64,000 nucleotides of DNA from a bacterium (GTDB taxonomy: Bacteria; Patescibacteriota; Minisyncoccia; Phycocordibacterales; UBA5272). The stretch lies in the NCBI GenBank assembly GCA_043771335.1, contig JAYVHM010000001.1:92901-156900 (forward strand). Direction: 5' to 3'. Below, piece after piece: positions 3,258-64,000 of the stretch; position 1 is the first letter of the stretch, and each line of letters starts with the position of its first letter. The notes under the pieces are model-generated. The model had not been told where the DNA came from. It was given only the letters and a program-made list of their open reading frames with translations, and did not search any database. Position numbers and translations under genes: made by a program.

Positions 3258-4505
3258 TTAATTCTTAATTTTAAAAGATTTTCTAATCAGGGTTAGACCA
3301 ACCATCGCAACCATCGCAAGAAAAATCAAATTACCCCTGTACTGGACCTGAACTCCAAAAGATGAAAGCAGGAAGAATATAACTATCCAAATAATAGGTC
3401 CAAAAATAGTTGCAGCTCTTTCAAAAATTATGAACGCACTAAAATACATGGCCTGTGAATCTTTTGGTATTATACTAGAATATATAGACCTAGCGAGTGG
3501 GAAGAATAGTCCATATGCAATTCCGGCAAAGATAAGTGTAGTAAATACAAAATAGATATTAGTTGGAGATAGCGCGAAACATAAAAAAGCAAAGACATAT
3601 ACAACTCCTCCAATCAGTAATAATTTATTTTTGTTCTCAAATTTATTAACATATCTCCCAAGAAACATGCAAGTAGAAAAAAGTGCCAGCAAGCTGATTG
3701 CTCCACCTATACTCGTCATTTTATCTGTAAACCCAAAAACATTTTTCATATATAATGATAAGTAAACCTGAAGCGTAGATATAGAATCTGCTACTAGCAT
3801 ATACCCTATTAAAAAATACAAAACTTTTTTATTTTCTTTTATCTTTAATAAAAACTTTTTATAAGAAAAAAATTCTAAATTTTTATTAATTAATCCCCCT
3901 TTGTAGTTAAAAGAACTAGAAAATAGAAATGGATACGCTAAAAATAAAAATATAAAGGCTCCTAAAAATATTGCAAGGCTTTTATCGAAAAGCCCAAACA
4001 GTGTGACACCAGAACCAATAATAAGTGCACCCATCAATCCTATACTAATGGCATTGCCCAGCTGACCTATACCTAATCCAAAACTAGAGACTTTATTTTT
4101 GTCTGATCCTTCATTTTCAAAATCTTGCATCATAGCTGAATAAAAAACATAAGAACCCTGAAAAGATATTTGAAATATTATATACAAAACCGAAAGTATG
4201 GCAAGTGTTGTAAAACTAAATACTTCATTAGTATTTGAGATAAATGCTAATAATAACAAAGAGAGAGACATTACAAAAGAAGATATCTTAATATATAAAA
4301 TTCTTTTAGACTTAGAAATGTCTGCACTATTCCCTAGTTTTGGATAAAAACTTAAAAGTATAATAGTTGAAATGACGACAGAGATTCCAATCCATGTGTC
4401 ACTAGCCCCTTTTTCAGAAAGTAAAAGTGGAAAGAAGAATACTATAACAGATGATGCAAAAGAATTTGCAAAATCATACAGATACCACAGTTTTATTTTG
4501 GACAT
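3258..4505 (-). CDS. Polytopic membrane transporter, MFS-like
   Basis: About 12 TM helices. Start moved to MSKIKLW because the ORF-track N-terminus (LCYN) reads through a TGTGTTATAAT promoter at 4521..4531. Confidence 0.45.
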   Translation of the reverse strand: MSKIKLWYLYDFANSFASSVIVFFFPLLLSEKGASDTWIGISVVISTIILLSFYPKLGNSADISKSKRILYIKISSFVMSLSLLLLAFISNTNEVFSFTTLAILSVLYIIFQISFQGSYVFYSAMMQDFENEGSDKNKVSSFGLGIGQLGNAISIGLMGALIIGSGVTLFGLFDKSLAIFLGAFIFLFLAYPFLFSSSFNYKGGLINKNLEFFSYKKFLLKIKENKKVLYFLIGYMLVADSISTLQVYLSLYMKNVFGFTDKMTSIGGAISLLALFSTCMFLGRYVNKFENKNKLLLIGGVVYVFAFLCFALSPTNIYFVFTTLIFAGIAYGLFFPLARSIYSSIIPKDSQAMYFSAFIIFERAATIFGPIIWIVIFFLLSSFGVQVQYRGNLIFLAMVAMVGLTLIRKSFKIKN

Positions 4506-4520
4506 ATTTTTATTAGGACA

Positions 4521-4531
4521 ATTATAACACA
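4521..4531 (-). promoter_or_regulatory. Extended -10 promoter TGTGTTATAAT
   Basis: Reverse complement of attataacaca; ATG at 4505, 15 nt downstream. Confidence 0.4.
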
Positions 4532-4540
4532 AAAACGACA

Positions 4541-5134
4541 TTAAATCGCTTCTGTGCTAGTTGCGGCTACCGCTGAATAATCTTCTTTTAGCTTATAAAA
4601 AACTTTTGCATCAAATCGAAGATCTATGTATTCTAATTTTTTACCTTTTTTAATTAGAGATTCTAATTCATTACTCATATATACACTAACAAAATTAACC
4701 CAGGCATTCTCTAAATTATCTTTGATTTTTAATTTTATATCAAAATTAGACATCTTTTGTATATTTACTCTTGCCTTACTTTTAACGTCTTGAGATACAT
4801 TAAAAATAATTTGATTGCTTGTAGTTGAGGTTTTTATTTCTAAAGTTTCCAAATCTATTTTTTTTAATTTATTCACAAAAAGACTTAGCCATAATTTATC
4901 TTCGTAACTTAGAACCCTCCCCCCTATTGTAGTTGGTAATATTATTTCTTCTTTTTTGTTAACATACTCTACATAATTCTTATTAAAAATCTCTCCCCAT
5001 TTTATTATTTTAAATACACCATAAATTATAACCAAAACCATAAATACCCACATAGAGACTTTTAAAAAGTATTTTAATTTGATTTTAAAATTTTCTATTA
5101 TGTCGCTAATATCATGATTGCTCTTTATTTTCAT
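4541..5134 (-). CDS. Hypothetical N-terminally membrane-anchored protein
   Basis: 197 aa with a single TM (VSMWVFMVLVIIYGVF) and no recognisable motif. Confidence 0.35.
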   Translation of the reverse strand: MKIKSNHDISDIIENFKIKLKYFLKVSMWVFMVLVIIYGVFKIIKWGEIFNKNYVEYVNKKEEIILPTTIGGRVLSYEDKLWLSLFVNKLKKIDLETLEIKTSTTSNQIIFNVSQDVKSKARVNIQKMSNFDIKLKIKDNLENAWVNFVSVYMSNELESLIKKGKKLEYIDLRFDAKVFYKLKEDYSAVAATSTEAI

Positions 5135-5193
5135 TTGTTTTTAATTATTTTTTATACAACATTTTTATGTTATAATGCTATTAATATAATAAC

Positions 5194-6735
5194 ATGAAAT
5201 TAAAGATTTTTAACACTCAAAGTAGACAAGAAGAGGATTTTATACCTATCAATGAAAAAGAAATCCAATTATATTCTTGTGGCCCTACTGTCTATCATTA
5301 TCAGCATCTTGGGAATATGCGCTCTTTTGTCTTTGCAGATATTTTGAATAATACCCTATCTGCCCTGTATCCAGAATCTGAGATTACTCATGTTATAAAT
5401 ATAACAGATGTTGGTCACTTAGTCGGTGATGGCAATGACGGTGAGGACAAGATGGAAAAAGGAAGCAAGAGAACAGGTAAAACTACTTGGGAAATATCAA
5501 AATATTACACTGAAGACTTTTTACAATGCCTCAACGCATTAAATATTGGAGACAATGAATACATAAAATCAAAAGTAAAAGATGGAGAGATTTACACAGT
5601 AGAGAATTATAAAAAAGAAAAAATAATTAGTGACAAATATACTTTTGTACGTGCCACTGATTATATAAAAGAACAAATAGACCTCATTAAAAAATTAGAA
5701 GAAAAAGGTTACACTTATGCAACTAGTGATGGTATTTATTTTGATACTAGTAAATATGCTAAGTATGCGGATTTTGCAAAATTAAATGTAAAAGGATTAG
5801 AAAGTGGAAAGAGAGTTGAGGATGTTAATGGTGAAAAGAAAAATATTACAGACTTTGCCTTGTGGAAATTTTCTCCAAAGGATGAGACAAGACAAATGGA
5901 GTGGGAGTCGCCATGGGGAATAGGATTTCCAGGTTGGCACATAGAATGCTCTGCCATGAGTGAGGCGATACTAGGTAAGAATTTTGATATACACACAGGT
6001 GGTATAGACCATATACCGGTGCATCATACAAATGAGATAGCTCAGAGTGTCTGCGCTCATAGTGGTGAGAATACAGAAAATAAATTTGTAAATTATTGGA
6101 TGCATAATAACTTTTTAAATGATGCAAGTGGCAAGATGGCTAAGAGCAACGATGATTTTTTGAGACTGGAAACTTTAACTGACAAAGATTATGACCCTTC
6201 AGCTTATAGATATTTATTATTAACTACTAATTACAGAAAAGAATTAGAATTCTCTTATGAATCTCTTGATGCTGCGAGTAATGCATTAAAGAAGTTACAA
6301 AAGTATATGCATGAAGCAGCAAAAAATGTAGATAATATTATTGACGCTACAAAATATAGAATAAATGAAGATTGGTATAATAAATTTCTAGAGGCAATGT
6401 GTGAGGATTTGAACACTAGTCGCGCACTTGCTGTTATGTGGGAGCTGATAAATCTTGAAAAAGAAAATAATAAATTAGTAGAAAGTTCAGAAAAAAATGA
6501 AAACAAAAACAAATCAGAGTCTCTACATGTCTACTCTACCATACTTAAAATGAACAAAGTTCTGGGTCTTAATTTATCTTTTTCAAAAGATGTAAATGAG
6601 TTAAGTCATGAAGACCAAGAGATAGTCGATGATTTATTTGCAAAAAGAAAAGCCGCCCGTGAGTCAAAAGACTGGGCGACTAGTGATGACCTCCGCGAAC
6701 AAATCAAAGCCTTTGGTGTGGAGGTGGTGGATTAA
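5194..6735 (+). CDS. cysS: Cysteine--tRNA ligase
   Basis: CGPTVY..HLGN (HIGH-type), KMAKS (KMSKS-type) and Zn-binding Cys/His; contains an acidic insertion. Confidence 0.9.
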   Translation: MKLKIFNTQSRQEEDFIPINEKEIQLYSCGPTVYHYQHLGNMRSFVFADILNNTLSALYPESEITHVINITDVGHLVGDGNDGEDKMEKGSKRTGKTTWEISKYYTEDFLQCLNALNIGDNEYIKSKVKDGEIYTVENYKKEKIISDKYTFVRATDYIKEQIDLIKKLEEKGYTYATSDGIYFDTSKYAKYADFAKLNVKGLESGKRVEDVNGEKKNITDFALWKFSPKDETRQMEWESPWGIGFPGWHIECSAMSEAILGKNFDIHTGGIDHIPVHHTNEIAQSVCAHSGENTENKFVNYWMHNNFLNDASGKMAKSNDDFLRLETLTDKDYDPSAYRYLLLTTNYRKELEFSYESLDAASNALKKLQKYMHEAAKNVDNIIDATKYRINEDWYNKFLEAMCEDLNTSRALAVMWELINLEKENNKLVESSEKNENKNKSESLHVYSTILKMNKVLGLNLSFSKDVNELSHEDQEIVDDLFAKRKAARESKDWATSDDLREQIKAFGVEVVD

Positions 6736-6737
6736 AA

Positions 6738-9332
6738 TTATTTATTTTTCAAGACTTTCTTCAAATACTTTCCAGTATGCGAGTTTTTATTATTAGCTAC
6801 GTCCTCTGGAGTGCCGTGAGCTACCAAGTTACCACCACCGACTCCACCCTCTGGTCCTATGTCCATGATATAGTCTGCGTTTTTTATAATATCAAGATTA
6901 TGCTCGATAAGCACTACAGTATTACCTTTGTCTACTAATTTATTTAAAATCTCTATAAGCTTTGCAATATCATCATAATGCAGTCCTATAGACGGCTCAT
7001 CTAAAAGATATATAGTTTTTTCTACGTGTGGTCTGTAAAGTTCTGAAGAAATTTTAACTCTTTGAGCCTCTCCTCCTGATAATGTGGTCGCACTTTGGCC
7101 AAGTTTTAAATATCCAAGACCTACGTCATTCATACTTTTAATACGATCATGTATCGCTGGTATATCCTCAAAAAAAGTTAAGGCCTCTTCTACTGTTAGC
7201 TCTAATATTTCATAAATATTTTTCCCTTTCCATTTTACTTCGAGAGTCTCCTTCATGAATCTCTTACCATTACAAACATCACAAGTCACATATACTGTTG
7301 GCAGGAAATGCATCTCCACAGCTATCTCACCATTACCGTCACATGCCTCACAGCGACCACCAGGAACATTAAAAGAGAATCGGCCAGCTTTCCACCCACG
7401 TAGTCTCGCCTCCTCTGTCTCACAGAAAATATCACGTATATGACCCCATGCTCCGGTATAAGTTGCTGGATTAGACCTTGGTGTTCTACCTATTGCAGAC
7501 TGATCTATTAAAACTAAACGTGATAAATATTCAGAGCCGGTAAAACTTTCACAGTTAAATGTCTTTGCACTTCTCTGTCTTTTTTCTAATCTAGCTTCTA
7601 GATTTCTATTTATTACTTCATACATAAGAGTAGACTTTCCAGATCCAGAGACACCAGTAATCACACTCATAACTTTTAGTGGGACTTTTACATCCATATT
7701 TTTAATATTAAAAGCATTCGCACCTTTTATTATTAATTCACCATGTTTTTCACGTCTATTTTTGCTATAAGGTATAGACACCTCACCACGAAGATAAGCA
7801 AGTGTTCTTGATTTTGATTTATTAGTTTTTGCAGTGAGCAAGTCTTCTAGATAATCAGCAACTATAACCTGACCACCATGCACTCCTGCCGCTGGACCAA
7901 TCTCAACCATAAAATCGCTGGCAAAAATAGTGTCTTCATCATGCTCAACCACGATAATAGTATTACCCATATCACGTAGCTCAGTTAAAGTTTTTATCAA
8001 TCTATCATTGTCTCTCTGATGTAAGCCAATAGTCGGCTCATCCAATACATATAATGCACCCACTAACTTACTTCCGAGTTGTGAAGCGAGTCTTATTCTC
8101 TGTGCTTCACCACCCGATAGGGTGTCGGCACGCCTGTTAAGTTGCAAATAATTAAGTCCCACATTCAACATAAAAACTAATCTACTTTGTATCTCAGAAA
8201 TTACCACTTTTGCTATTTCTTTTTCTTTGTCAGTTAGATTTAAATTATCAAAATATTTTCTAGCATCCTCAATAGACAAGTCAGTAACATCTACTATATT
8301 TATCTTGTTCTCATCATCAAGAAAAACATTGAGCGCTTCTTTTCTTAGTCTCTTTCCATTACAATCTTCACATGGGTCCAGTGCTCCCATGTACTTTACA
8401 CCGAGACCATTACAAGACACACATGCCCCATAAGGTGAGTTAAAAGAAAATAATCTCGGCTCTATCTCAGGAAAAGAAAATCCACAATTAGCACAAGAAA
8501 ACTTATTGCTCATAATATTTTTCTCACCAAGTATGTCGAACTCTACCAGACCGTCACTCTCTGTTACTGCGCGCTCTACTGCTTCATTTAACCTCATTAA
8601 GGCATCTTTGTTCTTATCTTTTAACTTAAACTCATCTATTGCTATCTCATCTACTATTAGTGATATTTCATGTTTTTTATTTTTATCCATTTCTATTCTC
8701 TCACGCAGACTTTTTCTCTCACCATCAATCATAATCTCAGTGTAACCTTTTCCTAAAAAGTCGTACAACATCTGATAATGCTCACCTTTTCTGCCACGTA
8801 TTATAGGAGAAAGTATCACTACATTTTTATGAGAAAACTCTACCCCCATCACAGACTTTTTTATATCTTCGTATTTTACTTTTTTGATTTTCTCTAATAC
8901 AAAGTTGATAATCTCTTCATTACTTAATCTCTGTATTTTACTTCCACAGTCCACACAGTATGGCTTGCCGACACGAGCATACAAAACTCTCAAGTAGTCA
9001 TATATCTCAGTGATGGTCGCAACTGTCGAGCGGGGATTTCTGCCTGCTGATTTCTGATCTATTGATATTGCTGGTGACAGGCCGACTATCTCATCTACGT
9101 CAGGCTTTTGCATTTGATTTAAAAATTGTCTAGCATAAGCGCTCAGACTCTCTACATACCTCCTCTGACCTTCAGCAAAAATAGTATCAAAAGCAAGTGA
9201 AGATTTTCCGCTACCAGAAAGGCCAGTAAAAACAATCATTTTATTCCTTGGCAATTCTACTGTTATATTTTTTAGATTATGTGTGCGGGCACCACGAACT
9301 ATTATCTTTTCTATTTCTTTACTCTTACTCAT
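6738..9332 (-). CDS. uvrA: Excinuclease ABC subunit A
   Basis: Two ABC modules ([23 protein letters not shown] x2) and Zn-finger Cys pairs. Start at MSKSKEIEK; the MLYNLY N-terminus in the track comes from reading through the promoter -10. Confidence 0.9.
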
Positions 9333-16372: not shown

Positions 16373-17644
16373 TTAAATCTTTGATTTATAATACCTCTCG
16401 CAGAATTCCTTTTTGTAATTTAGGAAGTTGTCATCTAGTATAGACTGGCGGATGTTTTCTACGAGCTTGATCAAAAAGTGCAGATTGTGAGCGCTGGCGA
16501 TAGTCGCCGCTAACATCTCCTCAGCACGGAAAAGGTGACAAAGATAGGCTTTTGTGTATTTGTTTGCTGGGCAGTCTATATCATCACACACAGGACTCAT
16601 ATCGTTTTTAAATTTTGCATTAGTAATATTTAACTTACCATCATAGCTGTGCACACTACCGTGTCTCGCTATGCGAGTTGGTGACACGCAGTCAAAAGTA
16701 TCGATTCCATACTCAACACCCAAGAAAAAGTCTACTGGCTCACCGATACCGAGTAGGTGGCGTGGTTTACCTTCTGGGAGATTCTCAGTCGCACTCTTTA
16801 CGGTTTTGCCCATGTCTTCCTTTGTAAAGCTTCCTCCGATGCCAAAGCCGTCAAAATCCATCGCACCTAGAGTCTCTGCACTCTCTTTGCGCAGATCTTC
16901 AAATGCACCGCCTTGTACCACTGCAAATAATGCTTGCTGCTCAGCTGTTGCACTGCTCACCCCGAGTCTTTTGTGCTCATCTATACACCTCTTTGCCCAT
17001 CTGTGCGTACGATCCATAGCAGATATCTGATATTCACGACTAGCAAGTGGTGAAGTACACTCATCGAATGCAAAAAATATATCAGCGCCTAGATCATGCT
17101 GTATCTGCATGCTAGTCTCAGGAGTGAATCTATGGTACGAGCCATCGATAAAAGATTTGAAAGTTACTCCTTCTTCATCTATCTTTGCCATTTGGTTTTT
17201 GCTAGATTTTATTTTCACTTTTCCTTCATCGTCTGTAGTTTGTTTTTGTTTTGCACTGAGCTGAGCACTGGTGGCTATCTTTGACACACCAGTATCAAAG
17301 GCAGCTCCGAGTGAAAACACTTGGAATCCTCCCGAGTCAGTCACAGTAGGCAAAACTCGCCCACTATCGTCCACCCAGTTCATCATCTTACCAAAGCCTC
17401 CGTGATTTTTTACTAGCTCACTTCCTGGCTGAAGATATAGATGATAAGTATTTGCCAGCACTGCTTGTCCTCCGATATTTTTCACGTCTTCTACGCTGAG
17501 CGCCTTCACTGTGGCCTTTGTACCCACAGGGATAAATGCAGGAGTGAGTATATCACCATGCGGCGTATGTATCACCCCAGCTCTAGCCAAACTCACCTCA
17601 CTACTTCTCTTTTCTATTTCAAAATTAAATTTTTTATTTTGCAT
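16373..17644 (-). CDS. tgt: Queuine tRNA-ribosyltransferase
   Basis: AGVIHTPHGDILTPAFIPVGT, LLGIGEP and C-terminal Zn site (CxCxxC..H); contains a Lys-rich insertion. Confidence 0.9.
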   Translation of the reverse strand: MQNKKFNFEIEKRSSEVSLARAGVIHTPHGDILTPAFIPVGTKATVKALSVEDVKNIGGQAVLANTYHLYLQPGSELVKNHGGFGKMMNWVDDSGRVLPTVTDSGGFQVFSLGAAFDTGVSKIATSAQLSAKQKQTTDDEGKVKIKSSKNQMAKIDEEGVTFKSFIDGSYHRFTPETSMQIQHDLGADIFFAFDECTSPLASREYQISAMDRTHRWAKRCIDEHKRLGVSSATAEQQALFAVVQGGAFEDLRKESAETLGAMDFDGFGIGGSFTKEDMGKTVKSATENLPEGKPRHLLGIGEPVDFFLGVEYGIDTFDCVSPTRIARHGSVHSYDGKLNITNAKFKNDMSPVCDDIDCPANKYTKAYLCHLFRAEEMLAATIASAHNLHFLIKLVENIRQSILDDNFLNYKKEFCERYYKSKI

Positions 17645-23271: not shown

Positions 23272-23279
23272 TTTATTTG

Positions 23280-23353
23280 TGTCGATGGGTGGGATCGAAC
23301 CACCGACCTTAGCTTTATGAGTGCTATGCTCTAACCAACTGAGCTACATCGAC
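23280..23353 (-). tRNA. tRNA with CAT anticodon (Met or Ile2; elongator-like, G1-C72 paired)
   Basis: Reverse complement gives GTCGATG-TA-GCTCAGTTGGTTAGAGC-A-TAGCA-CTCATAA-AGCTA-AGGTC-GGTGGTTCGATCCCACC-CATCGAC-A. Perfect acceptor, D and T arms; the anticodon stem has one A-A mismatch; CCA not encoded. Confidence 0.7.
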
Positions 23354-23397
23354 ATAAGGTGGTGAGCAATGCAAAGCATTACCCAGACCTATCCTTG

Positions 23398-23467
23398 TTG
23401 CGGAAACTGGAATCGAACCAGTGTCCCGAGGTTATGAGCCTCGTGAGTTACCTCTACTCTATTCCGC
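23398..23467 (-). tRNA. tRNA-like gene with CAT anticodon (short D-arm; Met/fMet/Ile2 undetermined)
   Basis: Reverse complement gives GCGGAAT..GAGT-AGAGGTA-ACTC-A-CGAGG-CTCATAA-CCTCG-GGAC-ACTGGTTCGATTCCAGT-TTCCGCAA. The T-loop (TTCGATT) and anticodon arm are clean; the acceptor or D spacing is atypical and needs tRNAscan. Confidence 0.5.
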
Positions 23468-23505
23468 TATGTTTTCAAGAAAATTAATACTTTTCAAGAG
23501 CTTTC

Positions 23506-43069: not shown

Positions 43070-43549
43070 TTAAAAATCATCTGCAAAAGTATTTCTGGTT
43101 ACCATCTGATCTCGAACCAGAAAGCCTTCTATCACTTTGTATATCGTAATCATCTCTATTTTTGACCCCATAAAAAAATCAGAATCCTGCACGGCAAAGT
43201 TCTCATTCGCAAGCAAGGTCCTCATATACGGATCATTTTCAAAATAATCTACTGATATAAAATTAAGTGACCTACCTGACATAGCATCCACTTCTACGCT
43301 CAGAATACTGTCCAAATAAGCACCTAGTATGCTGTGGCCCCTCCACTTTCTCTCAAAGAGAGGCCATTGTTCACCCTCCTCATCTATGCGCCACTGCTTA
43401 TCGTCGATAAATTCTAAGATAATACTTTCACCTTCTTGTGTATGATGCTCTGCTTTTTTAAGTGTCTGAGATCCACTGCCTAATAATATTGAAAAATTAT
43501 TAGCGAGTAACCACTGGACAAAAGTCTGCTGTTTTTCTGATTGATCCAT
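43070..43549 (-). CDS. Hypothetical protein, tandem paralogue A
   Basis: Shares FxxWLxxxxF, IxxxxD..IDxxG and SLNF blocks with the 43685 gene; AAGGAG SD 6 nt upstream. Confidence 0.4.
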   Translation of the reverse strand: MDQSEKQQTFVQWLLANNFSILLGSGSQTLKKAEHHTQEGESIILEFIDDKQWRIDEEGEQWPLFERKWRGHSILGAYLDSILSVEVDAMSGRSLNFISVDYFENDPYMRTLLANENFAVQDSDFFMGSKIEMITIYKVIEGFLVRDQMVTRNTFADDF

Positions 43550-56733: not shown

Positions 56734-58569
56734 TTAATGATGGCCCAAAACTTGATTAGTGTGTCTCTTGTGTATCATTTTCTTGTATATATTTCTACCT
56801 AGTATATATAATATTACAAAAAGAATAATACATAATAATAGCTTGAACAGCCAACCACTCCAGAACATTGACTGACTAGAACCCTCACTTGAAGTATTAA
56901 GAGACTTGTCAGTAACTGTAGATATTATGTAAGTGCTAGATTCGTCACTTATCTCATTGTTATTTTCGTCGAGAAGATCGTAAGTTGCTAATGCTGATAC
57001 TATTAAACTTTTTCCTGTAGCCACATTTTTATCTGCTTTTAATTTTAAAATCACAACCCCTTCTTCACCTGCTTTTATTTTATTTATTTCTACAGATATG
57101 GTATTCTCGGCACCAACAGAATAATCTCTTGACGATACTGCTGTCATACCTTCTGGAACTTTTATTGTAAATAAAACATTGTTAACAGTTAACTCACTTT
57201 TATTTTTATAACTTAACTCGTATTCAGAAGTCTCACCAGCATAGACATAATTTGTTTTATTTTCTATGGCTAATAACATTAATTTATCACCCTCTTTTAA
57301 GCTTTCTGTATTACCTTCTGAATCTTTACATATTACTGTAGATTTTACAGTTTTTGTAACTTTTGTGCTTACTTTTTTCACCTGCTCTTCTCTTACTGTT
57401 GAGACGTATCTTTTTGCTTCTGATAAAGTTTTAAAACTTAATATATCACCCCTGTAGGTCCCATTGGAATTTCTAATAACAGCTCGGCAATAATATGTGG
57501 TATCTGGTTTTAAATTAGTTATAGTATTAGAAAAAGAAATAGATTCATCACCAATATCCCCAGAATTAGTAACCTTACCTAGGTCTCTGGTGCTACCATA
57601 TTCAAAATATCCATTAGTGTCTAATCCACTGTGAATATTATCTAAGGCGTTACATCTGGCACTATTCAAGCCTATTTGATTTATATTGGTAGTTATAACA
57701 CTGTCTCTATCTCTATAATTGACTGTGTATGTATTTTGAGTTGACTGAGTGCGTGTGGCATAGGTCTGCATATTGTTACTGCCCGATGGACAGTTTTCAT
57801 TTTCTGGTATATCTTTTCCATTTGCTGATCCACCCCAACAAACCTTTGTACACACTTCATAAAAATTAACCTGACTTCCATCTTTACAATTTTTCTTAAT
57901 AGGCATACAGTTTTGTCCTGAGACATTATAATTAGCTGGGCACACTACTCTTGGTGCGGTAGGTGTGTTATTATATGTTTGAGTGTAGCCATTACCTCCA
58001 CCCCAAATAGTAGGCGTTGGCGGGACATAAGCAACAGGCATTGGAGTTGGTGTATTGTAAACTACAATAGGCTTATATGTTGTAGTGTAGCCATTACCTC
58101 CACCCCAGTTAGTGACTGCAGAAGGAGTGTAAGGAGTTGAGGGTGTGGGTGTAGTATATATAGGAGAAGGTTTATATGTTGTAGTGTAGCCATTACCTCC
58201 ACCACCCCAATTAGTTACAGCAGGAGGAGAATAAGTAACATTAACACCAGTACCCCCTGTATATGTAGGAGTATTGTTATAGGTTGGACTATTCGTATAT
58301 ACTGGATTATTATTGTTTGTAGGGGATGTATACACTGGCGAATTATTAACAGGGCAAGAATAAGGCACAGTTACAAATATACCATCACCACAATCAACCT
58401 GCACAGGGTTATTTGTTGTGGGTGTTGTGTATATAGGATCTGGCTCTGGAGCTGTAACACAGCTAGGACAATCTAAATCAAAATCGTCACCAAATTCAGA
58501 ATAAGAAAAATTAAAAATTAATGTTAATAAAAGAAGGTTGAATAATATATTTTTAAGAATTTTTTTCAT
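56734..58569 (-). CDS. Cell-surface protein: signal peptide, Thr/Pro/Tyr-rich WGGGNGYTTTYKP repeats, Fn3-like domain, DUF11-like domain, C-terminal TM anchor
   Basis: Signal peptide LLLLTLIFNFSYS; three tandem repeats; Fn3-like TNGYFEYGST...TTYYCRAV; C-terminal WLFKLLLCIILFVILYILG. Confidence 0.55.
   Translation of the reverse strand: MKKILKNILFNLLLLTLIFNFSYSEFGDDFDLDCPSCVTAPEPDPIYTTPTTNNPVQVDCGDGIFVTVPYSCPVNNSPVYTSPTNNNNPVYTNSPTYNNTPTYTGGTGVNVTYSPPAVTNWGGGGNGYTTTYKPSPIYTTPTPSTPYTPSAVTNWGGGNGYTTTYKPIVVYNTPTPMPVAYVPPTPTIWGGGNGYTQTYNNTPTAPRVVCPANYNVSGQNCMPIKKNCKDGSQVNFYEVCTKVCWGGSANGKDIPENENCPSGSNNMQTYATRTQSTQNTYTVNYRDRDSVITTNINQIGLNSARCNALDNIHSGLDTNGYFEYGSTRDLGKVTNSGDIGDESISFSNTITNLKPDTTYYCRAVIRNSNGTYRGDILSFKTLSEAKRYVSTVREEQVKKVSTKVTKTVKSTVICKDSEGNTESLKEGDKLMLLAIENKTNYVYAGETSEYELSYKNKSELTVNNVLFTIKVPEGMTAVSSRDYSVGAENTISVEINKIKAGEEGVVILKLKADKNVATGKSLIVSALATYDLLDENNNEISDESSTYIISTVTDKSLNTSSEGSSQSMFWSGWLFKLLLCIILFVILYILGRNIYKKMIHKRHTNQVLGHH
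57969..58224. repeat. Tandem ~80-bp coding repeats (WGGGNGYTTTYKP units)
   Basis: ggtgtagtgtagccattacctccacccca recurs three times. Confidence 0.6.
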
Positions 58570-59367: not shown

Positions 59368-61629
59368 TTAATGAGAAGTGTTGTCATTAGAACCTAAACC
59401 CTTAACGTCTCTTAATATTACTCTACCTAACACGAACAATATCATTATTAGTGCTAAAATAGCTACCCACTCTAACAATGTGCTCGGCAATACACTTATT
59501 GATTTTGAAGATTTTTCAATATCATTAGTTTTTGTATTTGAGTCTTTGTTTGTGTCAGTTACCGTAGAAATAACATAAGCAGTTACTTCATCTTTTAAAG
59601 TTTTACCTTTTGTATCTAATACTTCGTAAGATAAGTAAGAATTAAGTACTAAGCTTTTTCCGGCTGTAGCGTTATCATCAACTTTTAATTTGATGATTTT
59701 CTCTACCGTTTCTCCTGTTCTCACTCTTGCATCCTCTATAGTAATAGAGTTTTCAATAGCATCATACTCTCCGATATTCTTATCAACAAAAGTCATATCT
59801 TTTGGAGCTGTAATTTTGGCTATCACATTAGAGAGTGTTAGCTCTGAAGTATTTTTATAAGTTACTTTATAGTCTACAACACCTCCTTTTGTGATTTGAT
59901 TAGAGATAGCCTCTATCCTTACTGTCGCTAACTTCTCACCGCTTTTGATAATATCCTTATTACCATCTACGTCTTGGCAAGTAATGTCTATACCACCTTT
60001 ATCTGATTTTGGTGCTACATAAGTTATTACTTTTTTACTTTTTACATAAGTTACTACTTGTTTTGGTTTTGGAGCTGTGACTACTGGTATGTATTTTACA
60101 TAATCACTTGCTGTTCTAAAGCTCATAAGTTCACCCTTGTAAGTACCGTTTGCATTTACTATAACTGCTCTACAATAATATAAAGTATTTGGTTTAAGAT
60201 TAGTTATAAGGCTTGAGTATTGAGTGTTCATTTGATTGCCAATATTACCAGAATTAGTATTATGTCCAAGTGATTGAGTGGCTCCATACTCAAAGTATCC
60301 ATTAGTGTTAACCCCATTAGCTATCATCGCTACACCATTACACTTTGCACTGTTTTGCATGATTTGTGTTGGTACGGTAGTAACTACTCTGTGATTAATG
60401 GTTATTATATTTCTACAATAGTTATTGTAATCATTTTGAGAATAATAAGTTCTGCTATTTACAGTACAATACCAAGTTGGTGCAGTTACAGTTTTACAGT
60501 AGTTACTGTACTCATTTTCAGTGGTATAATAATATCCATTAATAGAACAGTATTTTTTACATCCATCAGCGTATGATTGATTGGTGGAATATGTCTGACC
60601 ATTTAATGCACAATACATTGTAGTTGGAGCTTTACAGATATTATTAAATTCATTCTGAGTATTATAATAGTATCCATTGTAAGTACAGTATAATCTACAT
60701 CCTGTATTATATGAATCTTGTGTATTATAAGTAGATCCATTTAATGAACAATACCAAGTCTGAGTATTTTTACAATAAGCATCATAAGCAGATTGTGATG
60801 AGTAGTATTGACCATTAATAGAACAATATATATTCACTACTGGAGCTTTACAGTAATTATTAAAGTCTGATTGAGAGTTATAATAATATCCATTAATAGA
60901 ACAGTATTTTTTACATCCATCAGCATAAGACTGTTGAGAATTATAAGTCTGTCCATTTAACGCACAATATAAGTTAACTACATTTTTACAATTAGCATCG
61001 TAAGTTGCTTGCGAGTTATAGTATTGACCGTTAATCGCACAATATATTCTAACTTCTGGAGCTTTACAATAATTGTTAAAGTCTGACTGAGAGTGATATG
61101 TCTGTCCGTTAATAGAACAGTATAAGTTAATAACTGGTAATGATGGTGTTACTGGTGTCGGGTAAGTATATATAGGGCTTGGTGTTGTATATATGGGTGC
61201 AGGATTTGTGTATATAGGATTAGTTGGATAAGTATATATAGGGCTTGGTGTTGTATATATAGGATTAGCTGGATATGTGTACACTGGATCGTTGTATACT
61301 GGATTTGTCGGATATGTATATACTGGATCGTTGTATATAGGCTGAGTATATACTGGGTCGTTATAAATTGGATCAGTATACACTGGGTCATTAGTGTATG
61401 TATTACAACTTCCATAATATTCACAACCATAAGACACCGTATCTACATTATTATTTGTGTAGCCAGTGTAATCAGTGTTGTCATAATTGTAGTCAGTAGT
61501 GTAGTTATAATCATAGTCATACTGAGCATAAACTGATTGCACTACTACAAAGTTAGCATTGAATAAAAATGCAAAAAGCATTGATGCTGTTAATGTTTTT
61601 TTACTGATATTTATAAGGATTTTTTTCAT
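59368..61629 (-). CDS. Cell-surface protein: signal peptide, P-x-Y-T repeats, ten 2-Cys ~24-aa repeats, Fn3-like domain, DUF11-like domain, C-terminal TM anchor
   Basis: Paralogous architecture to the 56734 gene; Fn3-like block is about 55% identical (TNGYFEYGAT...TLYYCRAVIVNANGTY); C-terminal LLEWVAILALIMILFVLG. Confidence 0.55.
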   Translation of the reverse strand: MKKILINISKKTLTASMLFAFLFNANFVVVQSVYAQYDYDYNYTTDYNYDNTDYTGYTNNNVDTVSYGCEYYGSCNTYTNDPVYTDPIYNDPVYTQPIYNDPVYTYPTNPVYNDPVYTYPANPIYTTPSPIYTYPTNPIYTNPAPIYTTPSPIYTYPTPVTPSLPVINLYCSINGQTYHSQSDFNNYCKAPEVRIYCAINGQYYNSQATYDANCKNVVNLYCALNGQTYNSQQSYADGCKKYCSINGYYYNSQSDFNNYCKAPVVNIYCSINGQYYSSQSAYDAYCKNTQTWYCSLNGSTYNTQDSYNTGCRLYCTYNGYYYNTQNEFNNICKAPTTMYCALNGQTYSTNQSYADGCKKYCSINGYYYTTENEYSNYCKTVTAPTWYCTVNSRTYYSQNDYNNYCRNIITINHRVVTTVPTQIMQNSAKCNGVAMIANGVNTNGYFEYGATQSLGHNTNSGNIGNQMNTQYSSLITNLKPNTLYYCRAVIVNANGTYKGELMSFRTASDYVKYIPVVTAPKPKQVVTYVKSKKVITYVAPKSDKGGIDITCQDVDGNKDIIKSGEKLATVRIEAISNQITKGGVVDYKVTYKNTSELTLSNVIAKITAPKDMTFVDKNIGEYDAIENSITIEDARVRTGETVEKIIKLKVDDNATAGKSLVLNSYLSYEVLDTKGKTLKDEVTAYVISTVTDTNKDSNTKTNDIEKSSKSISVLPSTLLEWVAILALIMILFVLGRVILRDVKGLGSNDNTSH
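60380..61125. repeat. Tandem ~72-bp (3-unit super-period ~216 bp) coding repeats encoding YCxxNGQxYxSQxxYxxxCK units
   Basis: Near-identical DNA blocks such as aatagaacagtattttttacatccatcagc recur. Confidence 0.65.
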
Positions 61630-61800
61630 AAGTTTTGTTTTTTAAATTTTTCTATATATTTTAATAATTCTCCATTTTTAACACCTATTTTAGGGTTTTA
61701 TTATTATATCATAATACTTTACAACTTGTCAAGTGCTATGTCTTACTAAAATTACTATTTTCTATATTTTACATAACACTACCATTTTTTAAGCAAAAAG

Positions 61801-61832
61801 AAAAGCCTAACTAATTTACATTAGTTAGGCTT
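61801..61832. repeat. Perfect inverted repeat AAGCCTAACTAA-tttaca-TTAGTTAGGCTT
   Basis: 12-bp stem read directly from the sequence. Confidence 0.6.
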
Positions 61833-61837
61833 ATTAA

Positions 61838-62001
61838 AGTCTATTTATAATCCGCACGACTCATTTTTGCGGTTTAAGCATATCAGTTTTTATGCTGAGA
61901 TAACTTATTGTTGACTGGAAAGTCTATTTATAATCCGCACGACTCATTTTTGCGGTTTAAGCATATCAGTTTTTATGCTGAGATAACTTATTGTTGACTG
62001 G
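61838..62001. repeat. Perfect 81-bp direct tandem duplication (two copies separated by aa)
   Basis: agtctatttataatccgcacgactcatttttgcggtttaagcatatcagtttttatgctgagataacttattgttgactgg at 61838..61918 and 61921..62001; copy 2 contains the last 12 codons of the 61966 gene. Confidence 0.9.
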
Positions 62002-62961
62002 TTTGTACTTTTCAGCAGTTACACAACCATTAGGGAGCTTGAAATGCTTAGTCATGTCTGGCCAAGCTTTCTTCTCAATCACTTCTTGGACCTTGTCGCA
62101 ATCATTCCCAGTAACTCCACCCAGTATCATGCGTGCATAGCCAGAACCTTCACCATTGGTCCAGTCAGTAACAGTAACAAGACCTGAAGTCTTGTCATGT
62201 CCAAGCTTGAACAGGCGACCATCTGTGGTACGAATACCGCAATAATCTGCATTCACTACTCCTTGAAAAGTTGCCACTGGCCGACTGCTACAACCTTGGG
62301 TGTGGCACACTTGACCAGTTACAGAATTACTTGGACGAGCGACGGAAATGTTTGGAGTAGCCCCTGGGACTTTCATTCCTGAATCATTCCAACCTTTCCA
62401 CTGATATTGGACAGTGCCTGCTACTTCAACACCCTGAATGAGATGAATTTTTTGTCCTGGTAAGTAACATAACCACTCACCACGATCATTCATTTTATCC
62501 AAAGTGCCTGAAGCTTGATCGCAAACTTTTTTTGCTTCGCATTTAGCATCACAAACAGTTTGCATCACTGTGCCCGCATGCACACCCTGCACTACACCTG
62601 GCAGCTGAGCCGTAACTGGTTCTGACATTTGATTACCAGGTAACCAGTTAGTGTAATTGGTGCATGGCGCTGCATGCCAAGCTTTGCTTGTTGGATGTTG
62701 AGCCATTTCAAAGCCAGTAGGAAGAACTACGAATTGATAACCCTGCACTGTTTCCATCTGGATACAGGTTGAGGATGTTAACTTTTCGCGCTTCCAAGAT
62801 TTTGGAGCTGGGCGGTTCAGGCTTGGTGAGTAGAACATTGATGTTCCGTCAGCAAGAGATGACTGACATTTTCCCAAATCAGCAAAGTAGATTTTGTTCT
62901 CTCCTGCTTGTACCATAAATGGAACAAGAGAGAAAAATAAAACAAAGAACCATTTTTTCAT
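61966..62961 (-). CDS. Secreted Cys-rich hypothetical protein in the higher-GC segment
   Basis: Signal peptide MKKWFFVLFFSLVPFMVQAG and about 20 Cys; codon usage is GC-rich and unlike the rest of the window. Confidence 0.45.
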   Translation of the reverse strand: MKKWFFVLFFSLVPFMVQAGENKIYFADLGKCQSSLADGTSMFYSPSLNRPAPKSWKREKLTSSTCIQMETVQGYQFVVLPTGFEMAQHPTSKAWHAAPCTNYTNWLPGNQMSEPVTAQLPGVVQGVHAGTVMQTVCDAKCEAKKVCDQASGTLDKMNDRGEWLCYLPGQKIHLIQGVEVAGTVQYQWKGWNDSGMKVPGATPNISVARPSNSVTGQVCHTQGCSSRPVATFQGVVNADYCGIRTTDGRLFKLGHDKTSGLVTVTDWTNGEGSGYARMILGGVTGNDCDKVQEVIEKKAWPDMTKHFKLPNGCVTAEKYKPVNNKLSQHKN

Positions 62962-63134
62962 GATAATTTCCTTTAAGAATAAGTAAGTTACTGGGTGCGG
63001 AATGCACTTAATTAACCTGGATCATGTACGTTGTATATTATACTCTTTTAAAACTATTTGTCAAGTAACTTACAAGAATTAGACAAAATAAAAAGCGAAG
63101 ATTTATTTTAATTTAAATCTTCGCTTTTGGTGAC

Positions 63135-63940
63135 CTAGATATTACAAACAATCAATTGACTTCCATCGGGATTTTTAATTCCTTTAGAAATCATTCTATT
63201 TGTCTCCACTTGATCTATACCGCTAACACACATTTTTTTTAACTGCTGTGTGGCGGTTGGTTTTACTGATGGTAAAGGCTTTGCATCATCTTGTTTAGGT
63301 GATGCGGGCGATTTTACCGCAGGCGGAGGGACTGGTGCTGCTTTTGGTATCACCGGTGACGCAGGCACTACAACTGCCGGAGCAGGAGGAGTAACTTGTG
63401 GCACCGGAACTACTTTTTTACAGCGCATGGACCGTTTTGACTCAAACAGTCAAGCAATTGCTTGCTTGCAGCTAACTCAGCTTTAAGTCTCGCATTGTCA
63501 GCATCAGCCAATGTGGCTAGGGCTGAGGATGAAGACGCTGCAGCGGGTACAGCTGCTGTAGAAATAGCAGTCAATGGTTTAACACTAATGTCTTTATCTG
63601 CCCATGGACGCCACGCAAGAACAAAGAGGACAATAGCACCCACCAGCATCAAAAACCAAAGTTTATACTTATCATAAACATCAATCTTTACACCGGAGAG
63701 ATGCTTAGCCACAGCATTTTCAATGTTGGTGTTCAATGCCTGAACACCAGCAGCAACATTTCCCTGAGAAGATACCCCTGACATACCTTGATTTTGATTT
63801 AAGGCAGCAGCAACACCACTCTGAGCGGCAATGTGCGTATGAGCAGACTGAATATCCATAGGATCAAATCCTTGAGCAAGAAGTGCTTGGTGATTAAGAC
63901 CCATTCTGATATGCCCTGCTATCTGTTCGATTACATTCAT
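63135..63940 (-). pseudogene. Frameshifted or split gene: N-terminal domain, TM, Ala-rich, then Pro-rich region and C-terminal domain (TolA/TonB/FimV-like architecture)
   Basis: ORFs 63410..63940 and 63135..63428 overlap in different frames at an A6 run (gtaaaaaagtag); a 1-nt change fuses ...GPCAVKK to VVPVPQVTPP... Confidence 0.4.
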
Positions 63941-64000
63941 GATTATCTCCTTTCAAAGAGTTGCGGGATCATTAGCCCGGGGATATTATCCCTAAATAAA

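Follow-up and report, generated by a model that had tools for sequence, protein, structure and literature searches.

The window analysed here is a stretch of 64,000 nucleotides (nt) from a chromosome of the Patescibacteria, also called the Candidate Phyla Radiation (CPR), taken from positions 92,901 to 156,900 of the forward strand of contig JAYVHM010000001.1 (GenBank assembly GCA_043771335.1). Our subject is a GC-rich patch of only about 2 kb at its end (61,966-63,940), which holds three open reading frames (ORFs), all on the reverse strand and described below in the direction of transcription: a small membrane anchor (ORF1, 63,410-63,940), a reading frame overlapping its end in the -1 frame (ORF2, 63,135-63,428), and a gene for a secreted, Cys-rich protein of 331 residues (p331, 61,966-62,961). 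The first-pass annotation had taken this patch for foreign-looking DNA, either the start of a horizontally acquired island or conjugative element or a chimeric or contaminating contig join. We find that the segment is native: it is a cell-surface cassette specific to its lineage, on a low-GC CPR chromosome. Related strains exchange its alleles by recombination, and its anchor appears to be made in two forms through a -1 ribosomal frameshift.

None of the three reading frames has an informative family in Pfam or NCBIfam, and neither they nor their neighbours match PHROG or PADLOC. The p331 gene (GC 0.440; GC at third codon positions (GC3) 0.355) is preceded by a sigma-70-type promoter at 63,037-63,064 on the same strand (TTGACA-16-TATAAT, 12 of 12 consensus matches), a conserved 5' untranslated region (5'UTR) and a strong Shine-Dalgarno sequence (AAAGGAAAT), and is followed at 61,803-61,832 by an intrinsic terminator (13-bp stem, then a T-run) whose structure is kept in a related locus, L011, through compensatory changes. 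This terminator is what the first-pass annotation had recorded as an inverted repeat at the junction: the hairpin does adjoin the tandem repeat described below, with a stem of 13 bp rather than 12. The same annotation's Cys-rich secreted protein was found as described, with 12 cysteines and a signal peptide (MKKWFFVLFFSLVPFMVQA, followed by GE), after which come a variable N-domain (residues ~23-115), a Cys-rich middle part and a C-domain (~216-331) of what we call type I. The family comprises 21 clusters among 5.8 billion proteins, with 124 representatives at E<=1e-3, none of them annotated; nine Cys columns are invariant and five more are present in at least 90% of 20 aligned members. A C-x4-C-x16-C unit formed by C219, C224 and C241 (62,238-62,306, reverse strand), at the junction where the N and C halves of p331 shuffle, resembles the EsV-1-7 cysteine-rich repeat (PF19114), and the profile of the p331 family gives weak matches to multi-repeat EsV-1-7 proteins over ~35 positions; p331 itself is not an EsV-1-7 member, as x2-R replaces x2-H and Pfam gave no hit at E<=0.01.

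ORF1 (GC 0.443, GC3 0.33) encodes the zero-frame anchor product of 176 residues. With topology inferred from the charge distribution around its one transmembrane (TM) helix (residues 94-110; 63,611-63,661), it consists of a cytoplasmic Ala/Gln-rich N-terminal region, the helix, and an external Ala-rich, coiled segment with a Cys pair (DCLSQNGPC); its homologues are 160-165 residues long, 78-84% identical, and all end in CAVKK. In the window this end reads GCT GTA AAA AAG TAG, which contains an in-frame -1 slippery heptamer, A_AAA_AAG (63,413-63,419), directly before the zero-frame stop codon (63,410-63,412). ORF2 lies in the -1 frame, and the two remaining frames after the junction are full of stops. 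After a spacer of 5 nt (63,408-63,412) follows a stem-loop at 63,353-63,407, a candidate frameshift stimulator with a minimum free energy (MFE) of -24.9 kcal/mol (z=-2.4). Ribosomes would shift by -1 at A_AAA_AAG, stimulated by this hairpin, and two anchor isoforms would result: a short one of 176 residues, and a long one of 268 residues with the predicted trans-frame junction ...NGPCAVKK/VVPVPQVTPPAPAVVVPASPVIPK and a Pro-rich stalk that carries a disulfide "knob" at its tip. Roughly the final third of the long isoform would be made only via the shift. The "~270-aa protein" of the first-pass annotation, described there as TM, Ala-rich and Pro-rich, is two overlapping ORFs in different frames, of 176 and 97 aa.

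The frameshift signal is conserved in relatives. At the equivalent place we found A_AAA_AAG in the window, L026, L028, L031, L007, L015, L017 and L030 and G_GGA_AAG in L011, L004 and L065, and all 11 distinct loci combine a canonical in-frame heptamer with a zero-frame stop 0-1 codons further on and a -1 ORF of 45-92 codons. For ten of these loci (L030 was not among them) we folded 85 nt from the heptamer, taking the MFE of each sequence and comparing it with shuffled controls. The hairpin starts at nucleotide 13, that is, 5 nt past the heptamer, in 10 of 10, with MFEs of -27.5 to -46.3 kcal/mol in the nine loci other than the window and z-scores of -2.2 to -6.0 in the nine loci with shuffle controls. 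Two sequence classes of basal stem occur, CCGGUG/CACCGG and GCGCCUGA/UCAGGCGC, and upper stems differ between lineages. Within the window, 183 in-frame heptamers of the form X_XXY_YYZ occur in 54 ORFs, and only the one at the end of ORF1 has a stop at most 3 codons on together with a -1 ORF of 92 codons and a strong fold downstream. As a negative control, the 20-mer of the frameshift site gave 33 matches in metagenomes, all of them chance matches in unrelated, mostly high-GC genomes, without an upstream membrane-anchor ORF and a Cys-tipped extension. Rfam covariance models, including those for dnaX and for insertion sequence (IS) frameshift elements, gave no match at E<=1 on either strand of 61,400-64,000. 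A conserved -1 frameshift signal is established computationally, and from it we infer that the frameshift itself appears to be used.

The -1-frame extension itself spans 92 codons (63,135-63,413, the greater part of the annotated 97-aa ORF2) and encodes a Pro/Ala-rich linker followed by a C-terminal two-Cys knob of type A (CVSGIDQVETNRMISKGIKNPDGSQLIVCNI). A Shine-Dalgarno sequence, signal peptide and TM helix of its own are all lacking, so the extension would reach the outside of the cell only as a fusion to the ORF1 helix. Read in the -1 frame, the knob evolves under purifying selection (dN/dS 0.14-0.38 in six pairwise comparisons), and the split between ORF1 and ORF2 is identical in independent assemblies. 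An intrinsic terminator (15-bp stem, then a T-run) follows the anchor gene at 63,091-63,128 on the reverse strand.

To place the cassette we drew syntenic loci and taxonomy from a search of genome contigs with PolA, which is encoded downstream of it. PolA is 91%, 80% and 62% identical to that of metagenome-assembled genomes (MAGs) from stream metagenomes, and more distant matches came from a Patescibacteria group MAG (62%), Candidatus Paceibacterota (52%) and Candidatus Saccharibacteria (53%). Scans of genome contigs and of metagenome contigs with the p331 alignment returned no matches, and the divergent p331 allele of L011, missed in a tblastn screen, was found by reading its ORFs. The order small single-pass membrane anchor, p331-family gene, large CLIPPER/DUF11-type surface protein (p753 in the window) recurs in nearly all homologues with usable context (L004, L007-L009, L011, L015, L017, L030, L031 and L065); TsaE and PolA come next in every locus of sufficient extent (L065 ends earlier), and where measured, PolA identity of these slot-bearing relatives is 52-80%. 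The exceptions are L029, in which a p331-like gene precedes a 900-aa protein without an upstream anchor, and L023, with a different upstream gene. In every one of these relatives the cassette lies 5-18 GC points above the surrounding locus (genomes of 33-43% GC), with GC3 of up to 0.61, and in L016 and L019, which lack the p331 family, the slot holds other GC-rich genes for small Cys proteins. A GC-rich cassette occupies the same slot in all related CPR genomes recovered, and the GC-rich slot is therefore an old feature of the lineage. The slots of L016 (3,567-6,130) and L019 (~4,400-6,180) have 51-58% GC in genomes of ~40%, and their small secreted Cys proteins carry motifs such as C.(L/P).KGCNDPN.

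We then asked what the GC step consists of. On recalculation in sliding 2-kb windows the difference persisted, the last window having a GC of 0.429 against a mean of 0.325 (standard deviation 0.024, maximum 0.385) in the other 120 (z=4.3), and 61,966-64,000 as a whole having 42.7% against 32.4% for 1-61,800. The step begins at the p331 stop codon (61,966), as the first-pass annotation had placed it (~61.97 kb), but it does not reach the 45-52% given there: each of the three ORFs is at ~44% GC and the intergenic stretch at 62.85-63.3 kb between them at ~30%. The background, put at 28-30%, is 32%, and directly past window position 64,000 GC is 21-39%. Applying the codon usage of the other 52 window ORFs to the three patch amino-acid sequences predicts 40.7-43.4% GC against the 44% observed, which leaves a residual of 1-3.4 points (z 0.9-2.4); GC3 is 0.29-0.36 against a background of ~0.25, with a residual of +0.04 to +0.08 (z 1.3-2.3). 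Amino-acid composition accounts for 75-90% of the GC excess in the window, the patch proteins being high in Ala, Gly, Pro, Val, Gln, Cys and Trp and low in Ile, Asn, Tyr, Glu and Phe. The codons CCG, GCG and GGC, described earlier as almost absent upstream, are indeed commoner in the segment, but only 1.2- to 3-fold (per 1000 codons, upstream vs. segment: CCG 2.1 vs. 6.7, GCG 5.5 vs. 11.6, GGC 6.8 vs. 8.3). Tetranucleotide frequencies, proposed as a check for a foreign signature, place the patch at the window maximum when taken raw (z=7.0), but after normalisation for base composition it is no outlier (z=1.9). The GC excess stems mainly from the composition of two exported proteins, plus a small GC3 excess, and the patch is mostly not compositionally foreign, with codon usage near that of the host.

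Comparison between relatives reveals a locus in which alleles are replaced against a conserved background. Between the window and L026, synonymous divergence (dS, by the Nei-Gojobori method) of the flanking genes is 0.70-1.53 (PolA 0.93, TsaE 0.86, p611 1.10, p238 0.90, p753 0.70, p518 1.53), compared with 0.18 for p331 (97% amino-acid identity) and ~0.48 for the anchor, so that synonymous divergence of the cassette is ~5x below that of its flanks. The reverse holds between L026 and L028, where p518 is 99.3% identical (dS 0.024) but the p331-family genes are only 27% identical, the anchor has a dS of 0.34, and the C-terminal domain of the extension, the knob, is replaced. Low cassette dS relative to the flanks, together with near-identical backgrounds carrying unrelated alleles, indicates that cassette alleles are exchanged by recombination. 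Single domains move as well: the p331-family members P0001 and P0008 share 26% identity in the N-domain, 35% in the middle part and 80% in the C-domain, P0014 and P0018 share 95%, 89% and 29%, respectively, and the window's own anchor extension is a mosaic, with a linker like that of L028 (dS 0.17) and a knob, like p331, resembling L026. Related strains thus exchange both whole alleles and single domains of the cassette.

In a 100-nt identity profile, the swaps are bounded by the p331 start codon and by a point near 61,840. On one side, the p331 promoter and 5'UTR remain 79-91% identical even where the coding sequence downstream is an unrelated allele; on the other, the window, L026 and L028 share 97-99% identity over the intergenic region of ~61,641-61,840, which holds the p331 terminator as well as the p753 promoter and leader, against 70-90% in nearby coding sequence. 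Homologous recombination would take place within these two conserved regulatory flanks, and the stretch at 61,630-61,802 on the reverse strand, comprising a promoter (TTGACA-18-TATAAT, 61,703-61,732) and the leader of p753 (which starts at 61,629), is a likely homology arm. The core of this stretch (CACTTGACAAGTTGTAAAGTATTATG.TATA.T....AAACCTTAAAA.AGGT.TTAAAAA) and the promoter are also kept in L011 and L031, without a match in Rfam, and the leader could be regulatory as well as a recombination arm. At the other end of the cassette, identity between the window and L026, profiled in 100-nt windows, jumps from ~58% to >90% at ~64,040-63,940, and L003, a 1,992-bp Logan contig from another sequencing run, starts at 63,963, 23 nt before the ORF1 start codon; ~63,960-64,040 is probably the 5' recombination boundary of the cassette, or else a point of strain variation in the L003 sample.

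At the 3' boundary lies a perfect tandem duplication of 2.0 copies (61,836-61,918 and 61,919-62,001), detected by sequence repeat analysis. It is real and takes in the 3' end of the gene, as had been reported, with a unit of 83 bp rather than 81 bp, each unit consisting of the last 35 nt of p331 and 48 nt of 3' flank. Both versions of the scaffold hold two copies, and because the repeat is present in the second assembly version as well, we treat it as biology and not as an artefact. L026 holds one copy, seen as an 83-nt alignment gap, and the unit spans the point at which homology with the L028 and L011 alleles resumes; on the strength of the single copy in L026 and of this position, we take the duplication to be recent, specific to this strain and tied to the 3' recombination boundary; slippage or imprecise resolution of recombination could have produced it.

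Segments of the two cassette proteins also vary together. Knobs fall into type A (C..G.D..ET..MI.....NPDG..I.VCNI) and type B (CH.PPPGW.....DQC.YK), and C-domains of the p331 family into type I (CGIRTTDGRLFKLG...) and type II (RC.FDCI.REV...CEIR...). Type A knobs occur with type I C-domains in the window, L026, L031 and L065/L066, and type B knobs with type II C-domains in L028 and L011. The family member P0014 combines an L011-like N-domain (95%) with a type I C-domain, from which we predicted a type A knob before the sequence of its locus was obtained; the prediction held, the locus (L065) carrying a type A knob. Relative to L011, L065 is 92.7% identical at the nucleotide level in the anchor and 90.6% across the p331 promoter, N-domain and middle part, and the non-adjacent knob and C-domain have both been replaced. 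That both changed around a 90.6%-identical stretch argues for functional pairing over simple linkage. Strict co-variation of the knob with the whole p331 type, which we also considered, was rejected: the association is with the C-domain only, with L004 as a possible exception.

Because the C-domain co-varies with knob type, the knob probably docks the 12-Cys protein at the cell surface through a cognate C-domain, which suggests a system of tether and cognate cargo. One transcription unit, with its promoter past the window and its terminator at 63,091-63,128, would make the short anchor and the long stalk-and-knob form, and a second, with its own promoter and terminator, would make the Sec-exported 12-Cys protein; the C-domain would dock on the cognate knob, leaving the independently variable N-domain to face outward. 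The proximity to large surface proteins, the lifestyle of CPR bacteria and the pattern of diversification make it most likely that the cassette acts, under diversifying selection, in strain-specific adhesion to a host or partner cell or in its recognition. Taken as a whole, we consider it probable that the segment is a native, recombining surface cassette with a frameshift-made anchor, knob docking and a role in recognition. Much more tentatively, and with more doubt than conviction, we propose a previously undescribed strain-specific "lock-and-key" surface system, in which the frameshift would set the number of docking sites, the knob would capture the cognate 12-Cys protein, the N-domain would recognise host or kin, and recombination would keep both the locus and its pairing diverse.

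Several observations weigh against the main interpretation. The window's hairpin ranks as the weakest of those folded (z=-2.4, with 3 of 200 shuffles folding equally well), and RNAalifold, run on MAFFT-aligned frameshift regions, gave no consensus structure or predicted pairs; the latter is explained by the fact that the sequences do not align, and we therefore folded each sequence singly against shuffled controls. Three loci have a possible -1-frame start codon 19 nt upstream of the ORF1 stop, ATG in the window and L026 and GTG in L028, which leaves independent or coupled initiation as a minor alternative for them. The co-variation rests on six loci that are not independent, and in L004 a B-like knob accompanies a type-I-like C-domain. 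Any role of p331 is putative, as its structure models are poor (pLDDT 52 and 60) and gave no fold match. Finally, cassette GC3 in L007, L015, L017 and L030 is 0.55-0.61 vs. 0.34-0.43, an excess that amino-acid composition leaves unexplained and that points to some additional force on the locus.

Among other explanations, the source scaffold speaks most directly to those involving foreign DNA. The contig corresponds to a scaffold of 211,255 bp (ENA ERZ28573538, BUSI22-1_SAMN19433714_METAG-scaffold_16), in which the patch sits ~17-19 kb from the nearer end. The 10 kb past the window encode small membrane proteins, a methyltransferase-like protein, DPRP (photolyase-related), DUF2256, an MFS transporter, PriA, Def and Fmt, and the opposite flank two large surface proteins, TsaE, PolA, GrpE and DnaK; low GC and native genes past 64 kb make this a 2-kb patch within a normal chromosome and not the start of an island. 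A recent acquisition from a distant higher-GC donor, such as a proteobacterium or a plasmid, with the patch as the first genes of an island or conjugative element, would fit a GC 10 points above background, the raw tetranucleotide score and genes without a known family. We nevertheless regard it as very improbable: GC falls back to 21-39% past 63,940, no integrase, recombinase, tra or type IV secretion system genes were seen in the segment or the next 10 kb, where the first-pass annotation had proposed looking for such genes, and blastn against plasmid and phage collections gave no matches to the segment. The sole direct repeat is the tandem duplication at one end of the patch, and the nearest tRNA gene is 20 kb off. 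Relatives whose PolA is only 52-80% identical hold orthologous cassettes at the same site, unlike an island that is absent from relatives, and every homologue with examined context, for which gammaproteobacterial or plasmid hits had been named as a sign of transfer or contamination, sits in a CPR-type locus, mostly in the same slot, with codon usage and normalised oligonucleotide frequencies near those of the host. The patch, then, does not come from a distant high-GC donor and is not an island or conjugative element; what stands of the earlier proposal of horizontal acquisition is allele exchange by homologous recombination among related CPR strains. An assembly chimera or contaminating join, with the 83-bp repeat mis-assembled, is scarcely credible. 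Perfect tandem repeats can be assembly artefacts, and the ENA scaffold has an N-gap ~500 nt away in the repetitive p753 gene (window ~61,456), but assemblies from other samples share the gene order over both junctions: L003 is 100% identical to the patch over its 1,992 bp, L026, an independent Logan contig from a different run, covers the upstream membrane-protein gene p518, the cassette, p753 and polA without a break and in the same order, L011, L031 and L065 are continuous over the junction between cassette and p753, and in L028 the conserved intergenic flank reaches the first codons of p753 before the contig ends. The end of L003, 30 nt into the 83-bp unit, is where a true tandem repeat would, as we infer, interrupt a k=31 de Bruijn graph, and both copies are present in both scaffold versions. 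The patch is neither an assembly chimera nor a contaminating join.

The remaining alternatives concern the forces and mechanisms at work within the native cassette. That GC-biased gene conversion at a recombination hot spot, or some other bias of the locus there, is the main source of its GC excess in place of protein composition is possible, if on balance doubtful: the locus recombines, GC3 is strongly raised in L007, L015, L017 and L030, and slots with unrelated small Cys proteins (L016, L019) are GC-rich too. Recombining bacterial genes tend to higher GC3 (Lassalle et al. 2015, PMC4450053). In the window, however, the composition of the proteins accounts for most of the excess, leaving a GC3 residual of no more than +0.04 to +0.08. 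The GC3 excess of the deeper relatives might reflect such gene conversion. It is rather unlikely that ORF1 and ORF2 are translated separately, through overlap or coupling, or that a single gene was broken by a frameshift mutation or sequencing error. The upstream ATG or GTG would allow the former, A6 runs are error-prone, and gene callers annotate two genes, but the split is the same in independent assemblies and kept in 11 distinct loci with two canonical heptamers, the hairpin stands at a fixed 5-nt spacing in all ten folded loci, and in most loci the downstream frame has neither a start codon nor a Shine-Dalgarno sequence near the junction (L031, L011, L004, L007 and L015 have no start codon there). 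The downstream product, moreover, has extracytoplasmic features (a Pro-rich stalk and a Cys pair) with no export signal of its own. Transcriptional slippage as a general mechanism was likewise rejected, the G_GGA_AAG loci having no homopolymer long enough for it. CPR genomes carry diversity-generating retroelements, and since the locus encodes variable surface proteins, its variation might arise within a genome, through such an element or through conversion from silent cassettes in the manner of pilE/pilS or vlsE. This, too, is highly improbable: 61.5-64 kb contains no template/variable repeat pair (a reverse transcriptase was not searched for across the window), neither the 64-kb window nor the 10 kb beyond contains a further copy or fragment of p331, of ORF1 or of the extension, and alleles differ by replacement of whole domains (<30% identity), not by adenine-targeted changes in a short tract.

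The candidate frameshift signal matches well-known cases in kind, in an unrelated cellular gene. In Escherichia coli dnaX, an A_AAA_AAG heptamer followed by a stable stem-loop yields two isoforms (tau and gamma) in a fixed ratio. The cassette shares the heptamer, a hairpin a few nucleotides downstream and, as we propose, two isoforms, and several cassette loci have, like dnaX, a Shine-Dalgarno-like GGAG or GAGG 8-13 nt upstream; the dnaX shift, however, leads to an early stop and a shorter product, whereas here it would add a 92-residue extension, in an unrelated gene family. The G/GT tail assembly chaperone of phage lambda uses G_GGA_AAG to make a C-terminally extended minor isoform whose stoichiometry matters. 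The same heptamer occurs in L011, L004 and L065, and in both systems a shift near the end of the upstream ORF extends the C-terminus, but lambda G/GT serves phage morphogenesis, whereas ours is a chromosomal CPR membrane anchor with no PHROG hits and a strong downstream hairpin. No report of frameshifting in Patescibacteria/CPR was found in the literature that we searched. As a candidate cellular -1 frameshift with textbook signals, two interchangeable heptamers and conservation over deep divergence, it comes from a phylum in which translation is otherwise difficult to investigate, and if true it would be one of very few cellular (non-phage, non-IS) -1 frameshift genes in bacteria.

The remaining features of the cassette likewise recall known systems without being explained by them. 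Cohesin-dockerin pairs and IdsD/IdsE of Proteus are type-specific cognate or self-recognition domain pairs; by analogy, the small-domain variants of the cassette co-vary between strains, but there is no sequence or detected fold similarity to either, and binding is here proposed from co-variation only. Knob/C-domain cognate pairs are a concrete, testable prediction. O-antigen and capsule loci undergo allelic replacement between conserved flanks and are usually GC-poor. Host-interacting lipoprotein loci in Borrelia are likewise allelic-replacement surface loci (PMC11389397). With both, the cassette shares conserved flanks, divergent alleles, breakpoints in the flanks and near-identical backgrounds with unrelated alleles, and it differs in being only 2 kb long and GC-rich, in shuffling at the level of domains, and in having co-varying segments in two proteins. 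A hypervariable repeat gene in Gracilibacteria varies within populations in a region of 9-mer repeats (PMC6851277), and a hypervariable Ig-domain module is described in Thermococcales (PMC8416519). Both resemble the cassette as lineage-specific extracellular proteins without annotation that show extreme local variation and are interpreted as under pressure to diversify through conflict or recognition; in contrast to the Gracilibacteria case, whole domains are swapped between strains here, and a putatively frameshift-dependent anchor forms part of the module. What is new is the combination of a GC-rich conserved slot, a putatively frameshift-dependent anchor and a co-varying segment pair in two proteins. 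More generally, a low-GC genome can show a sharp, local yet native step in GC, arising from the composition of exported proteins in a recombination-prone slot, and such a step need not signal foreign DNA or mis-assembly. For CPR biology, the cassette represents a compact, conserved yet hypervariable surface module beside large surface proteins, and a good candidate for the little-understood step of attachment and recognition in these episymbionts.

Some further observations concern the surroundings of the cassette and the rest of the window. The large surface proteins adjoining it, of 753 residues (p753, 59,368-61,629) and 611 residues (p611, 56,734-58,569), both on the reverse strand, are paralogous, with a signal peptide, Tyr/Asn/Pro-rich low-complexity regions and a C-terminal TM helix; a weak, sub-threshold DUF11/CLIPPER match was seen in the 611-residue protein only, and the 753-residue protein contains many YC(A/S)(I/L)NGQ.YNSQ Cys repeats, with a 216-bp tandem period at 60,625-61,125. 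Beyond the window, a gene for a 109-aa membrane protein that this genome carries (L002 ~7,200-7,700, equivalent to window ~66.2-66.7 kb) is absent from L026 and L028, where a clean 500-nt gap takes its place. By codon usage, the gene that looks most "foreign" in the window is not in the flagged patch: tgt, for tRNA-guanine transglycosylase (16,373-17,644, reverse strand; GC 43.3%, GC3 0.39), has a GC3 excess over amino-acid expectation of +0.136, the window maximum and above every patch gene, and a 159-aa ORF at 43,070-43,549 on the same strand, with no NCBIfam family, has the second-highest residual (+0.073, GC3 0.36). Lastly, two adjacent tRNA-Met(CAT) genes, 43 nt apart at 23,279-23,468 on the reverse strand, may represent an initiator and an elongator.

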